Source: a phage. From it: a DNA stretch of 47,489 bases. Below the pieces are notes generated by a model. It saw only the letters and a program-made list of their open reading frames with translations, did no database searches and was not told the DNA's origin. Both the position numbers and the translations under genes were made by a program. The number at the start of each line of letters is the position of its first letter. The first letter of the stretch is position 1. The stretch lies in the NCBI GenBank assembly GCA_025699765.1, contig GCA_025699765.1_4134.1. One strand, 5' to 3'. Shown here piece by piece: positions 1,852 through 46,462 of the stretch.

Positions 1852-1925
1852 CTTAACTTCTCCTGATTGGTGTATGAGGTGCATTATAACACCTCATTAA
1901 TTATTTGTTTAGCTATTTGTGCCGT

Positions 1926-8185: not shown

Positions 8186-8232
8186 GATGTTTACCTTTTT
8201 GTGCTATTTATCGGTGAACCCATTATACAGGC

Positions 8233-14817: not shown

Positions 14818-14930
14818 GATGTTTCTCCTGATTGGTCGATAGCACTTTTTGTTAAAAGTTAAGTGAATAAAGTTGATAGGATGATTTTACAGAAATGAAT
14901 AAGGGGGCGCAAGCCCCCTATGGGTGGTAT

Positions 14931-18599: not shown

Positions 18600-18640
18600 A
18601 ATAATAGCACTTTTTGTTAAAGCGTCAAAGTGTTTTTATG

Positions 18641-19408
18641 TTATACATCAACCTCTGGCGTTGGCACTGCTTCTACGCGATAAGCAATGGTCGCCGTCGT
18701 CTTGCTGGCATCGTTAGCCGTCCATGTGATATTGAAATCACCGACTGTTTCTCCACCAACAGGAGTCACAAGACCTGAGTCCGGATCGATGGTGGCGATA
18801 TTGGTGGCATCGATTGACCACTTACCAGTCTTGTCAGTTGCATTAGCCGGAAGAACATTCGCTACACACTGAATCGTAACATTGTTTGGCTGAGGACTTT
18901 CCTTGTTAGCGGTGATTGTAGCGGACTCAACAAGAACGACAGGTGGCGGCGGCGGTGGAACGATGAAAGCATTTTGTTTCACCTGAACCTCAATGACATA
19001 CCCGTCCTCGTGCTTAACAAAGCCGCCAGCAAAGGTCCATCCCGCGGAACCAGATCCACCAGTAACAACTCCACCAGCTCCAAACTGCAACCTTGAGAAC
19101 AAGCTGGGAGCCTCATCAAGAGAAGTAAGCGCCCATACTCGACCGTGAGAAACGACGCTGCACACTTCACCGTCGAGGATTTTACCGCTCAGGTGTTCAT
19201 ATTGGGAACGGAAGGCGATACCGTAAGGAGTCCCACCTTCATCAAGCGCCTTTACAACCTTCACTCCATCAACGATCCCGACAACCTGAACAGCCGCGCC
19301 GAACTTAATTTCACCTTGAGCAACGCAAGCGCCATCAATATTGTAGGTTGAAGTATCAGAAAGATTGCCGGGGCACGCAGGTCGCAACATTAAATTTTCG
19401 TAAGCCAT
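18641..19408 (-). CDS. Capsid decoration/cement protein paralog with Pro-rich linker and Ig-like C-terminal domain
   Basis: N-terminal ~150 aa is paralogous to the ORF at 19469-19945 (shared NIDGACV...AVQVV...VKAL...TPYG.A.RS...HGRVW). Then a PPPPPP linker and a beta-rich Ig-like domain. Start refined to MAYENL with GGAG site. Confidence 0.6.
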   Translation of the reverse strand: MAYENLMLRPACPGNLSDTSTYNIDGACVAQGEIKFGAAVQVVGIVDGVKVVKALDEGGTPYGIAFRSQYEHLSGKILDGEVCSVVSHGRVWALTSLDEAPSLFSRLQFGAGGVVTGGSGSAGWTFAGGFVKHEDGYVIEVQVKQNAFIVPPPPPPVVLVESATITANKESPQPNNVTIQCVANVLPANATDKTGKWSIDATNIATIDPDSGLVTPVGGETVGDFNITWTANDASKTTATIAYRVEAVPTPEVDV

Positions 19409-25826: not shown

Positions 25827-25879
25827 AAATCCATCCTCTTTGTTTAACATTTAGTGCTATTTTACCATATTGCAGGCAT

Positions 25880-27876: not shown

Positions 27877-28082
27877 GCCTCTTCTCCATCTTCCTCGATC
27901 GGGGTAAAAAACTGCGTGTTAACTGCCGGATTGTAATAAACTCCTTCTTCATAGTCGCTTTCTTTCACTTCAATGAAAACGTCGCAACCGTCATGCATGA
28001 AATCACCGTTGTCAGTATGAACCAGTTCGAATACCTCGGAAGTTTTAGTGCAAGTAAAAAACTTATCAGTTGATACCATCAT
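27873..28082 (-). CDS. Hypothetical acidic protein, 69 aa
   Basis: First ORF downstream of a palindrome-bearing promoter region. Confidence 0.45.
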   Translation of the reverse strand: MMVSTDKFFTCTKTSEVFELVHTDNGDFMHDGCDVFIEVKESDYEEGVYYNPAVNTQFFTPIEEDGEEA

Positions 28083-28154
28083 TTTGATTTTCTCTCTTCG
28101 TTGTCGATGAGGTAACTATATCAAATCACCCCATCGACGTTTTAGCAATTCGTG

Positions 28155-28727
28155 CTATTTATTGATGAACGTGGCGGCTATGTGCTGAGCGGTAATTTCT
28201 GGATGACCTTCGACAGAAAAGAAGTCACACTCCTGATAACCGTTGACACCGATCATATCGTCAAGATAGATATAGTCGCGGCTGTCGTTGTCAAAGTTGC
28301 AACCGTTGCGATGGATTCGACACAGCTTGACCTGGATGTCACCTTCAATCATCTGCAAGATCTCGTCTTTGAATCCACCGTCAGTAAATACCGAAAGTGA
28401 ATGCGACTCTTTCACCTTGCTTTCCGCTCGCATACCGAAGAAGCGATTTCCGAACTGCGGCTTGATGACCTCCTCGCTAATCCAGATCATAAACTGGCGC
28501 GGGCTTTTACCGTTCAGGATTGATGCTGGCTCTTCTTTATATCGACGGTCCTCATACAAGAACATGAAATACTCGTAGTTAGCTTCACCCAGGATTGCCC
28601 GGGCAATCTCAAACATTGGCGCTTTGAAGCTGCGTAGCGCTACATGATCGTAAGTGTCAGCCAGGATGCATCCGATAGTGTCCTTTCCTGCGCCAGGCGC
28701 GCCGTTTAAAATGATAGCTGTTTTCAT
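28155..28727 (-). CDS. Deoxynucleoside monophosphate kinase-like P-loop protein (T4 gp1-like)
   Basis: Walker A GAPGAGKDT and an NGKSP motif, both resembling T4 gp1 dNMP kinase (recalled from memory). Confidence 0.6.
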   Translation of the reverse strand: MKTAIILNGAPGAGKDTIGCILADTYDHVALRSFKAPMFEIARAILGEANYEYFMFLYEDRRYKEEPASILNGKSPRQFMIWISEEVIKPQFGNRFFGMRAESKVKESHSLSVFTDGGFKDEILQMIEGDIQVKLCRIHRNGCNFDNDSRDYIYLDDMIGVNGYQECDFFSVEGHPEITAQHIAATFINK

Positions 28728-29537: not shown

Positions 29538-29594
29538 TCGATGGAGTAACTATATCAAGATGCCACGATCCGGTTTTAACAAAAAGTGCTATTC
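29538..29594. repeat. 57-bp exact repeat, copy 1, promoter-like element
   Basis: tcgatggagtaactatatcaagatgccacgatccggttttaacaaaaagtgctattc; the second exact copy is at 31549-31605. Contains TAACA-N5-TGCTA and ACTATA. Confidence 0.7.
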
Positions 29595-30864: not shown

Positions 30865-30971
30865 AGCTGATTCCTCTGATTGGTTGCTTTGCTTCAATAA
30901 GGCCACTATATCAAATGGCCTTGCGGAATGTTTAGCAATTTGTGCTTAGTAATTTTATGGCTTTATATTAA

Positions 30972-31548: not shown

Positions 31549-31605
31549 TCGATGGAGTAACTATATCAAGATGCCACGATCCGGTTTTAACAAAAAGTGC
31601 TATTC
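31549..31605. repeat. 57-bp exact repeat, copy 2, promoter-like element
   Basis: Identical to 29538-29594; lies between the 31600 and 31310 genes. Confidence 0.7.
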
Positions 31606-32448: not shown

Positions 32449-33134
32449 AATATAACCTCTTTGTCTATTCGTGTGTAAATGGCGTCATAACGTGTCAACA
32501 ATTGCCATTGTGACGGCGCAATACAGATATGTCAACGCCTGCGAGCCAATTTTAAGCCGTGTAACATTTGTCTAGCTGTCTAGAGTCACTATAGAAATAT
32601 ATAGCTCCCAAAAAAAGTACTGTATATATAAACATGCAGATAGAAATATGCCAACAGTACGCTAGACAATGTAAGACAACTATACACAACTATTACAATA
32701 TAATTATCTATATATATAAATAAAAAAAACACTATATATATTATATAGATACATATATCTATATGTATATTTAGAGGCGTCACAGTGTGTAATTTTGTCA
32801 CAATGGCGATTCTAGACAAATATTACAGTCGTGACAAGTTAAAGTGTAATCGATAGCACTTTTTGCTAAAAATGGGGATTACTACCAGGCGAACCGGGTA
32901 ACACTAGATCCTCCCTCTCACAATCATTGCATTCTCAGCAACAAATCAACCAACTGTTGCACACCATGCAATAATCACGTTTCATCATTCGAGATCAATC
33001 GGGATCGCAATTATTCCAGATATTCCAGCATTGATGGAATAATGAGCAATTATTGGAATAGCATTTTTTGCTAACGACTTAGCTATGTTGGCAGGGTATG
33101 ATTCATCACATCAACCAGCCAGGAGAATAACAAG
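32449..33134. promoter_or_regulatory. AT-rich divergent control region with nested inverted repeats and two TAGCA-N5-TGCTA sites
   Basis: 686 bp non-coding. Inverted pair gccattgtgac (about 32507) / gtcacaatggc (about 32798); TGTCTAG twice (about 32568) and CTAGACA (about 32660, 32812); (TA)n-rich core 32690-32780; palindromes at about 32862 and 33053. Confidence 0.5.
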
Positions 33135-34081: not shown

Positions 34082-34221
34082 TTTATGTTCACACCTTTTA
34101 TACAGGAAAGTTTAACAGCGTAAAAAATGTTCGCGTTTACGATAGTCACCAAAAAGCAATGATGCAGAGAGTAGTGCTGGGAGGAACAGTCAAAGAGTGT
34201 AAAGTAATCTCTGAGTACTGA
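34078..34221 (+). CDS. Hypothetical small protein, 47 aa (below track cutoff)
   Basis: ATGA start/stop overlap with the upstream gene; hand translation MIYVHTFYTGKFNSVKNVRVYDSHQKAMMQRVVLGGTVKECKVISEY. Confidence 0.3.
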   Translation: MIYVHTFYTGKFNSVKNVRVYDSHQKAMMQRVVLGGTVKECKVISEY

Positions 34222-34298
34222 TAGCACAAATTGCTAAATACACACACCGGGGAGTGAGTTATATTACTCCCACACCAAACGAAACAAAGGAATCAAAA

Positions 34299-34739: not shown

Positions 34740-34819
34740 ATAGCACGATTTGTTAATATTGCCGCAAGGTCATTTGTTAAAGTGGCCTTGTTCAAGATAA
34801 CCAATCAGGAGTGAACGCA

Positions 34820-35236: not shown

Positions 35237-35309
35237 CCAATAGCACTTTTTGCAAAACGCGTGTACCATTGGCGGTGTATCATTCACACCGTCAACTAAG
35301 GAGTTTATT

Positions 35310-38815: not shown

Positions 38816-38880
38816 GATATGTAGCCTCTTTGTTTTTGATGTGGTTACTATACCCGAATCCCTTCGGGCGTTTTTATCAA

Positions 38881-40032
38881 TTAGTGCGATCCTGTCATTT
38901 CTGGACGGTAGATGAATCGACCTATCTCACCAAATTTCTTGTCGTAAACGATTACCGCCGCCTGACGATATGAGCGCCACCCGCCGCGCGCGGCGTATGC
39001 ATCCTTCGCTCCTAACTGACCGTGAACCTCATCGATACCTAACGAGTGTTCAGTGATTGTCTGATGATGCCAGTGACCGCTATGAGTATACACATACTTG
39101 CTCTCTCCGAAGTCTGCACGGAAGTCTGCCGCCATCGCTGCAAGTCGCGTGTCTGCCTTTTTCATAGTGTGCCCGTGAGTGTATCCCAATAAGGTGTTTC
39201 CCCATCGAGTCTTATGCAGAATCATAGGGCTAACGTCAACGAATACTCGCGGCTCGTCTTCATAATATGCCGACATTGCAGCACGTAGCCAAATCATCCC
39301 GGCCTGGTCGTGGTTCCCTTCAATAATCTGAACCTCGACTTCTTTGTGTTTCATAAGCATTTTGTCGATAGCGCGACGCACAGAACGGATCGCAACATGC
39401 ACCAATTTTGCGTATCGTGAATCCTGATCCAGAACGTGACCGCTTGCCGGGGTAACAGCATCAAGACTGTCCGAGTGAAGGAAGTCACCGCCAATTAACA
39501 GAACAGCCTTCTCTGCGTTAGGGGCAATATCGATCGCGTAATTGAAGAAGTCGCTAAGCACTTTTTCCGCTACGTCGGTAGAGTAGTTCTCTCCGCATTC
39601 ATGCTTATGAGCAAGCGCACCAATATGGAGATCGAATACCGGATAGAGTGCCAACTTACCCATCGCTGTCGTAAGTCCTTGTGAGGTTAGTAGTTCAGTT
39701 GGCTTTGCTCGCGGCAGGTCTTCACAGAATGCAATGCGCGCCGCTTCCATCATTGCCGCAATCTTCTCGCGGTCCTGATCGGTCTTTACCCAGCGCACTA
39801 CCTCGGTCCCATCACCTCGAATCATCGTCGACGTGCCTTTTACCATGAATCCCTCGGGAACGTTTTTAGCAACATGCTCGTTACCGTGAAAATGACCTTC
39901 TTTTGCCAGCTTGGCGTGACGCGCTTCAACAGTGCGAATGTGCATGCCGTATTTTTCCGCGATCTCTCGAAGTGTTAGGCCGCTCATGCGCTCTTCGATA
40001 AGTTGCTCGGTAGTGATTTTAGCTTGTGACAT
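38881..40032 (-). CDS. HTH-metallophosphoesterase fusion protein
   Basis: N-terminal helix-turn-helix (LTLREIAEKYGMHIRTVEARHAKL) fused to a calcineurin-like phosphoesterase domain (DLHIG; GGDFLHSD; EGNHD; GHTHG; GHWHH). Confidence 0.7.
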   Translation of the reverse strand: MSQAKITTEQLIEERMSGLTLREIAEKYGMHIRTVEARHAKLAKEGHFHGNEHVAKNVPEGFMVKGTSTMIRGDGTEVVRWVKTDQDREKIAAMMEAARIAFCEDLPRAKPTELLTSQGLTTAMGKLALYPVFDLHIGALAHKHECGENYSTDVAEKVLSDFFNYAIDIAPNAEKAVLLIGGDFLHSDSLDAVTPASGHVLDQDSRYAKLVHVAIRSVRRAIDKMLMKHKEVEVQIIEGNHDQAGMIWLRAAMSAYYEDEPRVFVDVSPMILHKTRWGNTLLGYTHGHTMKKADTRLAAMAADFRADFGESKYVYTHSGHWHHQTITEHSLGIDEVHGQLGAKDAYAARGGWRSYRQAAVIVYDKKFGEIGRFIYRPEMTGSH

Positions 40033-40817: not shown

Positions 40818-40868
40818 CTTGTCTCAATGAAATAACTATACCCGACTTTCGCCGGGTATTTTTAGCAA

Positions 40869-41120
40869 TTAGTGCTGAACGATCGTATCTGCTTTAAGTT
40901 CATCTACGTCTTTCTGGATAATTGAAGGCCAATTCTCGATATGTTCATTTTTTATCTCATCGAAAGACATATCAAGAGAACTAGTGAAATCCCACAGATC
41001 GCAACCAATAACATCCTGAGTCAATCCGTTTCGCTCCATAATTTCGCAGCACGTAGCTCGATAAAGTAGCCATAAACCTTGATCAGTTAACTTAACAGGA
41101 ATCATTTTCTCGTTAATCAT
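40869..41120 (-). CDS. Hypothetical protein, 83 aa
   Basis: ORF with ATGA overlap to the upstream methyltransferase gene. Confidence 0.45.
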   Translation of the reverse strand: MINEKMIPVKLTDQGLWLLYRATCCEIMERNGLTQDVIGCDLWDFTSSLDMSFDEIKNEHIENWPSIIQKDVDELKADTIVQH

Positions 41121-41830: not shown

Positions 41831-41897
41831 TTTTAGTCCTCTCGTTTTGGTGAAATAATAATGCCATATTCCATTCCGGCAGTTTTAACAAAAAGTG

Positions 41898-42329
41898 CTA
41901 TTTCATCATTTCGTAGATTGAGATCTTGAATTGCGCGAATCCGTATGCGACGGCAGAGAAGCCGCCACGCTCCCGGACCTTTCGAAGAAACTCCCTTTGC
42001 TTGTCGCTGACTGGTGACGCCTTTCCTTTGCCTGACTTATTAACCCGCTTTAGTTCTATTGCTGCAAACGGGTATTTTGAGTTGACACCAATCAGGATAA
42101 CGAAGTCTGACACGCCTTTAAGCAATCCGGCCTGCTCATCCCTGAGCGCCGATGTGATTGTTTTTTCACCTTCATTGACAGTGTGCCAAAATAGAAGGTG
42201 CGGGAAGTTGTATTTCAGCCAGGACACGCAATCTACCTGGTGAGCATCCTCCTTTCGCATGTCGCTTGGATCTCGTTCGTAAAATTCTAAGTAATCGCCT
42301 TTATCAGTTACTGACATTCTTATCTCCAT
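41898..42329 (-). CDS. VRR-NUC domain nuclease
   Basis: PD-(D/E)XK-type core ...GVSDFVILIGV...AIELK...; size typical of VRR-NUC proteins. Confidence 0.6.
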   Translation of the reverse strand: MEIRMSVTDKGDYLEFYERDPSDMRKEDAHQVDCVSWLKYNFPHLLFWHTVNEGEKTITSALRDEQAGLLKGVSDFVILIGVNSKYPFAAIELKRVNKSGKGKASPVSDKQREFLRKVRERGGFSAVAYGFAQFKISIYEMMK

Positions 42330-44819: not shown

Positions 44820-44913
44820 GGCTATTTAATCCTTTGAATCGTTGTATCGTTTACGCTATAATACACGACATACAGTAAACGTTTTTAGCAAAAAGTGCTA
44901 CAGGAGAATTAAG

Positions 44914-45366
44914 ATGAATATGCAACGTATCGCAGAGTCAACTGGTGAAATCGATAAACGTCACATTAATGGTAACAACGGAACGCGACGCGGTAAAGAC
45001 AAAAAGCCTCGGCAGCGCTGCGGCTTCTATATTCATAAAGAAGAAACACGAGCGGGACTGCGAGCGCGACTTGACGCTCTTATTGAATATTACGGCGGCC
45101 CAGCGGCCTGCGCAAAAGCTCTGAAGGTTAGCAATCAGACCGTGCAAGGATGGAAAGATCGCAACATGATTTCGTGGCAAGGTGCTGAAGCTGCGCATCG
45201 TGCTTACCGCCGTCAGGGGTGTAAAGGATTCCGCGCCGCATGGCTGCGATTCGACCTGAAGTTTGACGGTAACGGCAAATGCCTTGAGAAGAGATGCAAG
45301 AATAAGAAATTTATGCGCGTCGTGAAGAAGGAAGATATCGGAACGACCAATAGCATTTTTAGTTAA
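44914..45366 (+). CDS. Cro/YdaS-like HTH DNA-binding protein (candidate transcription regulator)
   Basis: YYGGPAACAKALKVSNQTVQGWKDRNMIS resembles Cro/YdaS-type HTH; basic N-terminal region. Start refined to MNMQRIA with AGGAGA site; palindrome elements lie on both sides. Confidence 0.55.
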   Translation: MNMQRIAESTGEIDKRHINGNNGTRRGKDKKPRQRCGFYIHKEETRAGLRARLDALIEYYGGPAACAKALKVSNQTVQGWKDRNMISWQGAEAAHRAYRRQGCKGFRAAWLRFDLKFDGNGKCLEKRCKNKKFMRVVKKEDIGTTNSIFS

Positions 45367-45369
45367 AAC

Positions 45370-45412
45370 AATAGACGCGTAGCGGGTTAACATCCTTCTA
45401 CGCGTTTTTTAT
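45370..45412 (+). terminator. Rho-independent terminator (gacgcgtag...ctacgcgt + T6)
   Basis: Long hairpin followed by a T-run directly after the regulator gene. Confidence 0.55.
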
Positions 45413-46386: not shown

Positions 46387-46462
46387 TCCATTGCAAGTCA
46401 GATAGCACAATGATAAAATCATTGTTTAGCAATTCGTGCTATTTACTTAAGGAGTTTATACT

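Follow-up and report, generated by a model that had tools for sequence, protein, structure and literature searches.

An oriented repeat in a T1-like phage genome as a probable class II marbox

Here, we present an analysis of a repeated DNA element in a 47,489-nucleotide (nt) stretch of phage DNA (contig GCA_025699765.1_4134.1 of assembly GCA_025699765.1; hereafter, the window), which constitutes most of the genome of a T1-like siphovirus (Drexlerviridae, Tunavirinae). How T1-like phages are transcribed was an open question: they have no RNA polymerase or sigma factor of their own and almost no recognisable sigma-70 promoters. A first-pass annotation of the window had described the element as a palindrome and proposed it as the operator of one dimeric DNA-binding protein controlling many transcription units. 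We found that the element is an asymmetric box of strict orientation, that it lies at a fixed distance from an extended −10 element, and that it matches the marbox consensus. We consider it likely that the repeat is a class II marbox (soxbox, robbox) read by the monomeric AraC-family activators MarA, SoxS, and Rob of the host (RamA in Klebsiella and Salmonella). Activator binding, activation, the start sites, and the acting paralogue are what we infer here from sequence. The motif itself has already been published, and the kind of element is known; its proposed identity as a set of class II (in one case class I) marbox promoters is new, and we found no prior report in the full-text literature of a link between marboxes and T1-like phages.

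Geometry of the repeat and its promoters

The window shares 89 to 93% identity with Shigella phage pSf-2, Shfl1, Eco_BIFF, and relatives, has a coding density of 92%, and shares the layout annotated in T1, with numerous small early genes, genes for replication, a lysis cassette, and a long operon of late genes. The repeat noticed in the first-pass annotation is real: TAGCANNNNNTGCTA (TAGCA-N5-TGCTA) occurs six times exactly in the window, with 0.04 occurrences expected from shuffles, and 17 times with at most one mismatch, with 1.33 expected. Scanning the window and related genomes with a directional position weight matrix (PWM) yielded 18 window sites above 18 bits, whereas shuffles give ∼0.7 hits above 8 bits; moreover, box and spacing are kept across lineages. 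Seventeen of the 18 positions listed earlier correspond to real sites, some of them displaced by 5 to 15 nt (14840, not 14855), but 46408 holds no site, and boxes at 25845, 1910, and 8192 were missing from the list. The repeat had also been described as always intergenic; every strong site indeed lies at a gene junction, but several overlap the last one to six codons of the upstream open reading frame (ORF), and the TAG of the motif is sometimes the stop codon of the upstream gene.

When phage TLS was re-annotated in 2024, a "direct repeat" of 21 nt, aaATAGCACnnnTTGnTAAAA, was reported at 21 places, intergenic, pointing the same way as transcription, ∼76 nt upstream of start codons, and was also noted in T1, Rtp, and Rogue1 (PMC11447400). 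Only three ordinary sigma-70 promoters were found in TLS, and the authors left the function of the repeat open, naming a stoperator, an enhancer-binding site, or an UP element (PMC11447400).

Sites were collected from T1 and from Braunvirinae, Webervirus, Tempevirinae, and Vc1-like genomes, the last four groups having proteins that share only 46 to 60% identity with their window counterparts, and we aligned 60 sites from four lineages/subfamilies. In the Tunavirinae and in all of these groups, the same box is present without change, with 13 to 22 strong copies per complete genome, and this invariance fits a slowly evolving reader supplied by the host. Along the downstream gene, the consensus is always ATAGCAC-N3-TTG(C/T)TAAAA, with a strict orientation relative to that gene. 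GCAC and G13 are near-invariant (98 to 100% of the sites, except for C7, which is C in 87%). The box is asymmetric: C7 has T11/T12 as its symmetry partner, the AAA tail occurs on a single side, and position 14 may be C or T; half of the sites break the palindrome (TTGTTA). The asymmetric information, the one-sided tail, and the strict orientation argue against the palindromic dimer site that had been proposed.

Downstream of the motif, information peaks at +35 (G), +37 to +39 (TAT), +42 (T), and +48/+49 (CA), and the alignment has no peak at a −35 hexamer beyond the A-tract. In 47/60 sites, the 15-mer is followed by an extended −10 element (TGnTAnnnT) with a gap of exactly 22 nt to the hexamer; TATAGT, TATTAT, CATAAT, and TATGAT are the commonest −10 hexamers, and G is present at −14 in 43/60 sites. 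The predicted start, C(−1)A(+1), is conserved and places the 15-mer at −49 to −35, centered at −42; therefore, there is no −35 hexamer. The complete 20-mer box spans −50 to −31 (center, −40.5) and is separated from the −10 element by an 18-bp spacer. Because of the fixed 22-nt distance to the extended −10 element, the CA start, and the lack of a −35 hexamer, we conclude that the class II geometry suggested earlier, with a center near −42, is right. The distance to the TATAGT-like hexamer is even more sharply fixed than had been stated, and the layout is, as had been noted, not that of a plain sigma-70 promoter, since the sites belong to promoters without a −35 hexamer. Likewise, control of many units by one factor is plausible for ∼15 transcription units, but a dimeric phage protein is unlikely to be this factor.

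The arrangement is exemplified by the following locus, in which the box holds the 15-mer palindrome (28143 to 28157) and is an exact match to the marbox pattern gcannwwntgnnaaa:

28139 to 28158, minus strand: marbox-like 20-mer ATAGCACGAATTGCTAAAAC, 13/14 positions of the marbox consensus AYNGCACNNWNNRYYAAAYN, PWM score of 32 bits
28115 to 28123, minus strand: extended −10 element TGA-TATAGT, 22 nt downstream of the 15-mer
28108, minus strand: predicted start (C−1/A+1; the +48/+49 peak of the 60 sites), 26 nt upstream of the ATG at 28082
28103 to 28138, minus strand: site-specific inverted repeat enclosing the −10 element, folding at −23 kcal/mol as sense RNA versus −12.7 kcal/mol as antisense RNA

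Other assignments of the box were considered and rejected. TTGYTAAAA could itself be an extended −10 element, with the hairpin described below as a 5′ RNA stem; we rejected this model because the TGnTAnnnT and CA peaks are fixed 22 nt downstream, whereas the position of the hairpin varies. The early region shows no excess of canonical −35/−10 sites (38 found, 39 ± 6.6 expected). Compared with a sigma-54 promoter (TGGCAC-N5-TTGC), the box has AG in place of GG and a G-to-G distance of 9 rather than 11 nt, and the −10 hexamer 22 nt downstream further contradicts this assignment. When the box is compared with what we take to be the motifs of IHF (WATCAANNNNTTR), Fis, CRP, OxyR, sigma-54, sigma-32, and Lrp, each fails in spacing or at invariant positions. 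The arms of the Lrp motif, which we assume to be YAG.A...T.CTR, resemble the palindrome but leave C7, the one-sided AAA, the orientation, and the class II distance unexplained.

Match to the marbox of MarA, SoxS, and Rob

The published marbox consensus is AYNGCACNNWNNRYYAAAYN, with RE2 = YAAA (PMC2064960). The site, gcannwwntgnnaaa, is not palindromic and has a specific orientation; in class II promoters, a forward box overlaps the −35 hexamer, and in class I promoters, a reverse box lies further upstream (PMC12052159). In Salmonella, forward sites cluster at −41 in promoters that have no −35 element and a canonical −10 element and transcription start site (TSS), and in structures with Rob or SoxS, sigma-70 is displaced from −35 (PMC10268841). 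RamA, a monomer with a pair of helix-turn-helix (HTH) motifs, occupies the class II site of micF at ∼−41 (CACT-7X-AAA) in a cryo-electron microscopy structure and contacts both sigma region 4 and the C-terminal domain of alpha (PMC8811837).

The phage box agrees with this description in sequence, orientation, and position. In the window, gcannwwntgnnaaa has 16 exact matches (0.8 expected) and the 18-nt classic marbox pattern has 11 (0.08 expected), while 14 boxes match at least 13 of the 14 specified positions (0.89 expected). Among the 60 aligned sites, at least 13/14 positions are matched in 47, and every specified position except 19 is matched in 87 to 100%. All complete modules read ATAGCAC...TAAAA toward the downstream Shine-Dalgarno sequence and start codon, i.e., in the forward orientation and with the same strand relation as in micF. 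Moreover, the box lies at −50 to −31 from the predicted start, with the same 22-nt gap as in micF and nfo.

This comparison was based on the published IUPAC consensus and the mar, micF, nfo, fumC, and sodA regions of Escherichia coli K-12. In the mar control region, the sole positive hit of the phage PWM is the classical marbox ATGCCACGTTTTGCTAAATC (13.9 bits); in the micF region, it is the known box ACAGCACTGAATGTCAAAAC on the micF strand (9.4 bits), in which the equivalent of the 15-mer lies 22 nt from the −10 hexamer (TAGAAT). The best forward box of nfo, ATCGCATAAACCACTACATC, is followed by TATCAT after 22 nt, and fumC has a 14/14 box with an ambiguous −10 element; both score below 0 with the phage PWM. 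The sodA region has no clear forward box. In eight T1-like genomes, a MarA/SoxS/Rob profile found no homologue among the ORFs of all six frames (best E = 0.17), and a Pfam scan of 55 window ORFs found no AraC/HTH_18 domain.

Based on these observations, we suggest a model in which a MarA-family monomer of the host would bind each box and replace −35 recognition. The bound activator would recruit sigma-70 RNA polymerase to the extended −10 element by contacting sigma region 4 and the C-terminal domain of alpha, like RamA, Rob, and SoxS in their class II complexes. Without stress, this role would most naturally fall to Rob, which is constitutively present; when the host meets antibiotic, oxidative, or bile stress, phage transcription would be raised by MarA, SoxS, and RamA. 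Some basal activity independent of an activator is probably provided by the TGn of the extended −10 element. We lean slightly toward the broader idea that the enterobacterial Drexlerviridae have handed the recognition of their early, replication, and lysis promoters to MarA, SoxS, Rob, and RamA.

Boxes, hairpins, and leaders along the window

The window contains 13 to 15 complete modules, in which the promoter is followed by a leader of 11 to 34 nt, a Shine-Dalgarno sequence, and a start codon. In addition to the module at 28108 to 28158, we assign the following:

29542 to 29592, minus strand: class II module; box 29573 to 29592, −10 TATAGT 29549 to 29554, predicted TSS 29542
30898 to 30948, minus strand: class II module; box 30929 to 30948, −10 TATAGT 30905 to 30910, predicted TSS 30898, ATG 30864
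31553 to 31603, minus strand: class II module; box 31584 to 31603, −10 TATAGT 31560 to 31565, predicted TSS 31553, ATG 31522
33058 to 33109, plus strand: class II module; box 33058 to 33077, −10 TATGAT 33097 to 33102, predicted TSS 33109, ATG 33135
34221 to 34272, plus strand: class II module; box 34221 to 34240 (14/14), −10 TATATT 34260 to 34265, ATG 34299
34740 to 34790, plus strand: class II module; box 34740 to 34759, −10 TAAAGT 34778 to 34783, ATG 34820
35240 to 35290, plus strand: class II module of the DUF3987 primase/helicase gene; box 35240 to 35259, −10 TATCAT 35278 to 35283, start codon 35310
38840 to 38890, minus strand: class II module of lysis-region genes; box 38871 to 38890, GC-rich hairpin in the spacer, −10 TATAGT 38847 to 38852, ATG 38815
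40828 to 40878, minus strand: class II module; box 40859 to 40878, spacer hairpin, −10 TATAGT 40835 to 40840, ATG 40817
41851 to 41901, minus strand: class II module ahead of dam; box 41882 to 41901, −10 CATTAT 41858 to 41863, ATG 41830
44851 to 44901, minus strand: class II module ahead of the helicase gene; box 44882 to 44901, −10 TATTAT 44858 to 44863, GTG 44819
45350 to 45400, plus strand: probable class II module preceding the primase gene, with the terminator of the Cro-like regulator gene interleaved; box 12/14, −10 TAACAT

Several other boxes depart from this arrangement:

32853 to 32872, plus strand: consensus box without a downstream −10 element, centered at −60.5 from the minus-strand promoter TTGTCA-17-TAGAAT (32809 to 32837)
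14839 to 14889, plus strand: box and extended −10 TGA-TAGGAT, antisense to tail genes and running into a terminator hairpin
18604 to 18654, plus strand: box and extended −10 TGT-TATACA, antisense to head genes
46392 to 46442, minus strand: box (14/14) with a weak −10 element, facing the primase gene's terminator and 3′ end
25841 to 25860, minus strand: orphan box (14/14), ending 14 nt before the ATG (25826) of the small terminase gene terS
1906 to 1925, minus strand: orphan box (14/14) whose end lies 21 nt upstream of the ATG of erf (1884)
8188 to 8207: orphan box, 2 nt upstream of the start codon of the tail-fibre gene, with the Shine-Dalgarno sequence inside the box

The box at 32853 to 32872 is reverse oriented relative to its canonical promoter, which is the class I marbox geometry, and T1 retains this arrangement with other hexamers. 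Overall, there is no enrichment of class I-type arrangements (5/111 boxes), and only the 32853/T1-105 locus is convincing; because this is a single locus without overall enrichment, its use in class I mode is suggestive only. The boxes at 14839, 18604, and 46442 face against the surrounding genes and have terminator hairpins within ∼40 to 60 nt; two of them, at 14839 and 46442, have their far edge 22 nt away from where a gene on the opposite strand has its start codon. These three boxes may make short antisense RNAs or insulate modules transcriptionally. The three orphan boxes, at terS, erf, and the tail-fibre gene, may serve as roadblocks or for occlusion, or they may be relics.

Nearly every module has its own inverted repeat, which differs in sequence from site to site and either encloses the −10 element or fills the spacer and abuts the hexamer (e.g., 28103 to 28138, 30900 to 30925, 34235 to 34270, 38853 to 38868, 40838 to 40859, and 44848 to 44882); the same is seen at most sites in relatives L075 to L078. 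These repeats fold more strongly on the sense strand (mean z of −2.2 versus −1.15) and contain many G-U pairs, which suggests that the hairpins work in RNA, namely in transcripts reading through from the upstream gene, rather than in DNA. Most likely, they are 3′-end structures, partial terminators, or processing signals that have been squeezed into the spacer, where sequence is not constrained. The annotators of T1 and SA30RD called these repeats terminators. As plain terminators, they do not stand out: by a simple criterion, 18 terminator-like sites were found versus 17.8 expected, and only compact GC stems qualify. A conserved leader, CATCGAAACGA (also CATCGACAACGA), extends from the predicted start over ∼+1 to +12 (e.g., 28108 to 28097) in all lineages; it could reflect an initial-transcribed-sequence effect, a translation or stability signal, or the second arm of the hairpin.

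The Pfam scan of the 55 window ORFs also identified three HNH_3 homing-endonuclease ORFs scattered over the early and replication regions, two of which have AP2 DNA-binding domain hits; such ORFs are typical mobile cargo of T1-like phages. A scan of IMG/VR with ATAGCACNNNNTTGNTAAAA returned 73 loci with one pattern match each; these look like chance hits, and rescanning with the PWM found a second strong site in only one of them (L042).

Alternative readers and known systems

Several observations weigh against a MarA-family reader. T1-like phages grow well in ordinary media. In unstressed cells, there is little MarA or SoxS, and most of the Rob protein is tied up in inactive aggregates (PMC10268841). 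The phage box is stricter than the chromosomal consensus, with near-invariant A3, T11, and T12, and has A instead of Y at position 19 in 60% of the sites; these differences could reflect selection for affinity or a different reader. The orphan boxes at 25841 to 25860, 1906 to 1925, and 8188 to 8207 leave no room for a promoter, and the model does not explain them. Moreover, box-carrying records include phages labelled as non-enteric, i.e., Pseudomonas syringae PsgS01F (PP134917.1) and Vibrio phage Vc1, both of 44 to 45% GC, a content like that of enteric phages. If these labels are correct, MarA/SoxS/Rob orthologues may be absent from the hosts, and this would be the strongest argument against such a reader. 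PsgS01F is approximately base-for-base equal to a Braunvirinae coliphage at many sites and has the same boxes; "Campylobacter phage A118", PsgS01F, and Vc1 all have 44 to 45% GC, full T1 synteny, and identical marbox-like promoters. The host labels of these three phages may be unreliable, and PsgS01F, with its 44% GC and coliphage-like sequence, fails to discriminate between a host and a phage reader.

The first-pass annotation had named two phage proteins as possible readers. ORF 38881 to 40032, which it had considered an HTH protein, is an SbcD-like DNA repair exonuclease (phrog_704) without a detectable HTH. The other, ORF 44914 to 45366 on the plus strand, belongs to the T1 gp23 family of "transcriptional regulators" (phrog_2856), has a weak P22 Cro/YdaS HTH at residues 54 to 84, and is a core gene of the Drexlerviridae that is present in 825 phage records. 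Its AlphaFold model has a confident core (residues 38 to 140), for which the best structural matches are all-alpha Cro repressors and not AraC-type proteins. Conservation is highest in the basic N-terminal tail, RIAxSTGEIDKRxINGNNGTRRGKDKKxRKR, which has 12 invariant residues; this tail (residues 1 to 36, encoded at 44914 to 45021) is predicted with low confidence, looks disordered, and may be a minor-groove arm or a contact surface for a host protein. The promoter of the gene is as follows:

44834 to 44862, plus strand: canonical sigma-70 promoter TTGAAT-17-TATAAT of the Cro-like regulator gene

The −10 element of this promoter overlaps that of the helicase promoter back to back, an arrangement that recurs in other lineages; the transcript crosses the box at +17 to +31, and an inverted repeat (CGTTTAC...GTAAACG) surrounds the promoter. 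Thus laid out, the Cro-like/helicase junction looks like a switch, at which the box may tip the balance from the canonical promoter of the Cro-like gene toward the overlapping helicase promoter.

We consider it unlikely that this Cro-like protein binds the 15-bp palindrome as a dimer, activates the box promoters, and represses its own gene, even though some of its features would suit this role: the half-site centers are 10 bp apart, as for HTH dimers, the switch-like layout is kept across lineages, and the gene has one of the few canonical sigma-70 promoters and could, therefore, be expressed first by the host polymerase. Also, the regulator accompanies the boxes in every genome examined, and both are lacking in the outgroup Aeromonas phage AsC4_1, which shares its terminase at 46% identity and instead repeats GTAGTTGACACA, containing a canonical −35 hexamer (TTGACA), up to seven times; because regulator and boxes always occur together, co-occurrence cannot separate the two readers. 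The Cro-like protein is nonetheless a poor fit and probably not the box reader, because its reading head varies while the site is invariant, asymmetric, and strictly oriented. In a 17-member alignment, few parts are as poorly conserved as the recognition helix (SNQTVQGW, SFQTIQQW, DVCRLTNAY), whereas the box is invariant down to 46% protein identity, leaving no variation to pair with changes in the protein. In addition, the fold is that of Cro repressors and not that of a known class II activator, and the full agreement with the marbox in consensus, orientation, and spacing would have to be fortuitous; the expected number of such boxes per window is 0.03 to 0.9. A little less probable again, in our view, is a different protein whose fold goes unrecognised, encoded by the phage or delivered with the virion, that would mimic or compete with MarA/SoxS/Rob in a system of the sigma-appropriation type like T4 MotA/AsiA. 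T1-like phages have dozens of small early ORFs without assigned function among which such a protein could hide, and the strictness of the box at positions 3, 11, and 12 and its presence in records attributed to non-enteric hosts would fit. However, immediate-early promoters would need the factor before its synthesis unless it is injected, the profile search and Pfam scan detected only the Cro-like DNA-binding domain and no AraC-like one, and invariance at 46 to 60% protein identity would be unusual for a phage factor and its site.

Two further explanations dispense with an activator, and we give both very little credence. According to the first, in line with a suggestion in the TLS paper, RNA polymerase itself would read the box as an UP-like element or through an unusual upstream contact. 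The interval from −50 to −31 does overlap the proximal UP subsite, the box has an A/T-rich center and an A-tract, and extended −10 promoters can work without a −35 element; but the near-invariant GCAC and G13 are unlike an UP element, which is A/T-only, lies at −59 to −38, and is bound by the alpha C-terminal domain, and TTGYTA, 22 nt from the −10 element, is too far away for sigma region 4. The second, which takes the boxes for sites of repression or roadblock like the "stoperators" of L5, or for portions of terminators, is the least probable of all. It would account for boxes between genes in the direction of transcription, for the hairpins that follow them and were called terminators by annotators, and for the few boxes that abut start codons without room for a promoter. 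Against it stand the promoter signature of a 22-nt extended −10 spacing and CA start in 47/60 sites and the terminator-like sites at the expected frequency; also, T1-like phages are virulent, and we know of no immunity repressor in them.

The class II marbox reading provides a complete model that is directly testable with existing reagents, and wholesale use of marboxes by a virulent phage family would be new. If it is true, phage development would be wired to the switch for intrinsic multidrug resistance, oxidative-stress, and bile responses. Phage expression would depend on, or be boosted by, regulators that clinical isolates overexpress as a means of antibiotic resistance (MarA, SoxS, and RamA), and would also be tied to Rob, which responds to bile and fatty acids. 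Each phage genome would represent a denser marbox regulon of higher affinity than any chromosomal one and could titrate the regulators away from host genes. The family includes Klebsiella Webervirus phages used in therapy work; phage-antibiotic synergy or antagonism would be predictable for Drexlerviridae therapy candidates, and loss of the regulators would be a route to resistance with a built-in cost. The consensus boxes would also be compact, strong, and inducible promoter parts.

Among known systems, repeats DR1 to DR18 of phage TLS, which are also present in T1, Rtp, and Rogue1, are the same element, intergenic and oriented with transcription; that description did not include the fixed extended −10 element, the predicted start, or the marbox identity (PMC11447400). 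The stoperators of mycobacteriophage L5 are similar in being many asymmetric sites in short intergenic spaces with one orientation relative to transcription; however, they are sites for the repressor of a temperate phage and have no fixed relation to a −10 element, whereas the sites described here have a promoter signature. In T4 middle promoters (MotA box and AsiA) and the Mor/C promoters of Mu, an activator box replaces the −35 element and the sigma-70 −10 element is kept. In these cases, the activators are phage-encoded and the boxes, at −30 or −43.5, have other sequences, whereas the box described here matches that of a host regulator family of which we found no phage homologue. The marbox of marRAB, which is the DNA of the MarA co-crystal, is identical to the RE2 half of the phage box over positions 8 to 18 (GTTTTGCTAAA), but it is a class I site, reverse oriented and upstream of −35, and only the phage box at 32853 to 32872 resembles it in this respect. 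E. coli and Klebsiella promoters with a class II marbox (micF, nfo, fumC, and lpxC P2) share with the phage promoters a 20-bp asymmetric forward box near −41, the lack of a −35 hexamer, a canonical −10 element and TSS and, in micF and nfo, the 22-nt gap. The phage boxes differ from their chromosomal counterparts in that they lie in a virulent genome at ∼15 to 25 copies per 48 kb, are much closer to the consensus, and are commonly followed by a TGn extended −10 element.

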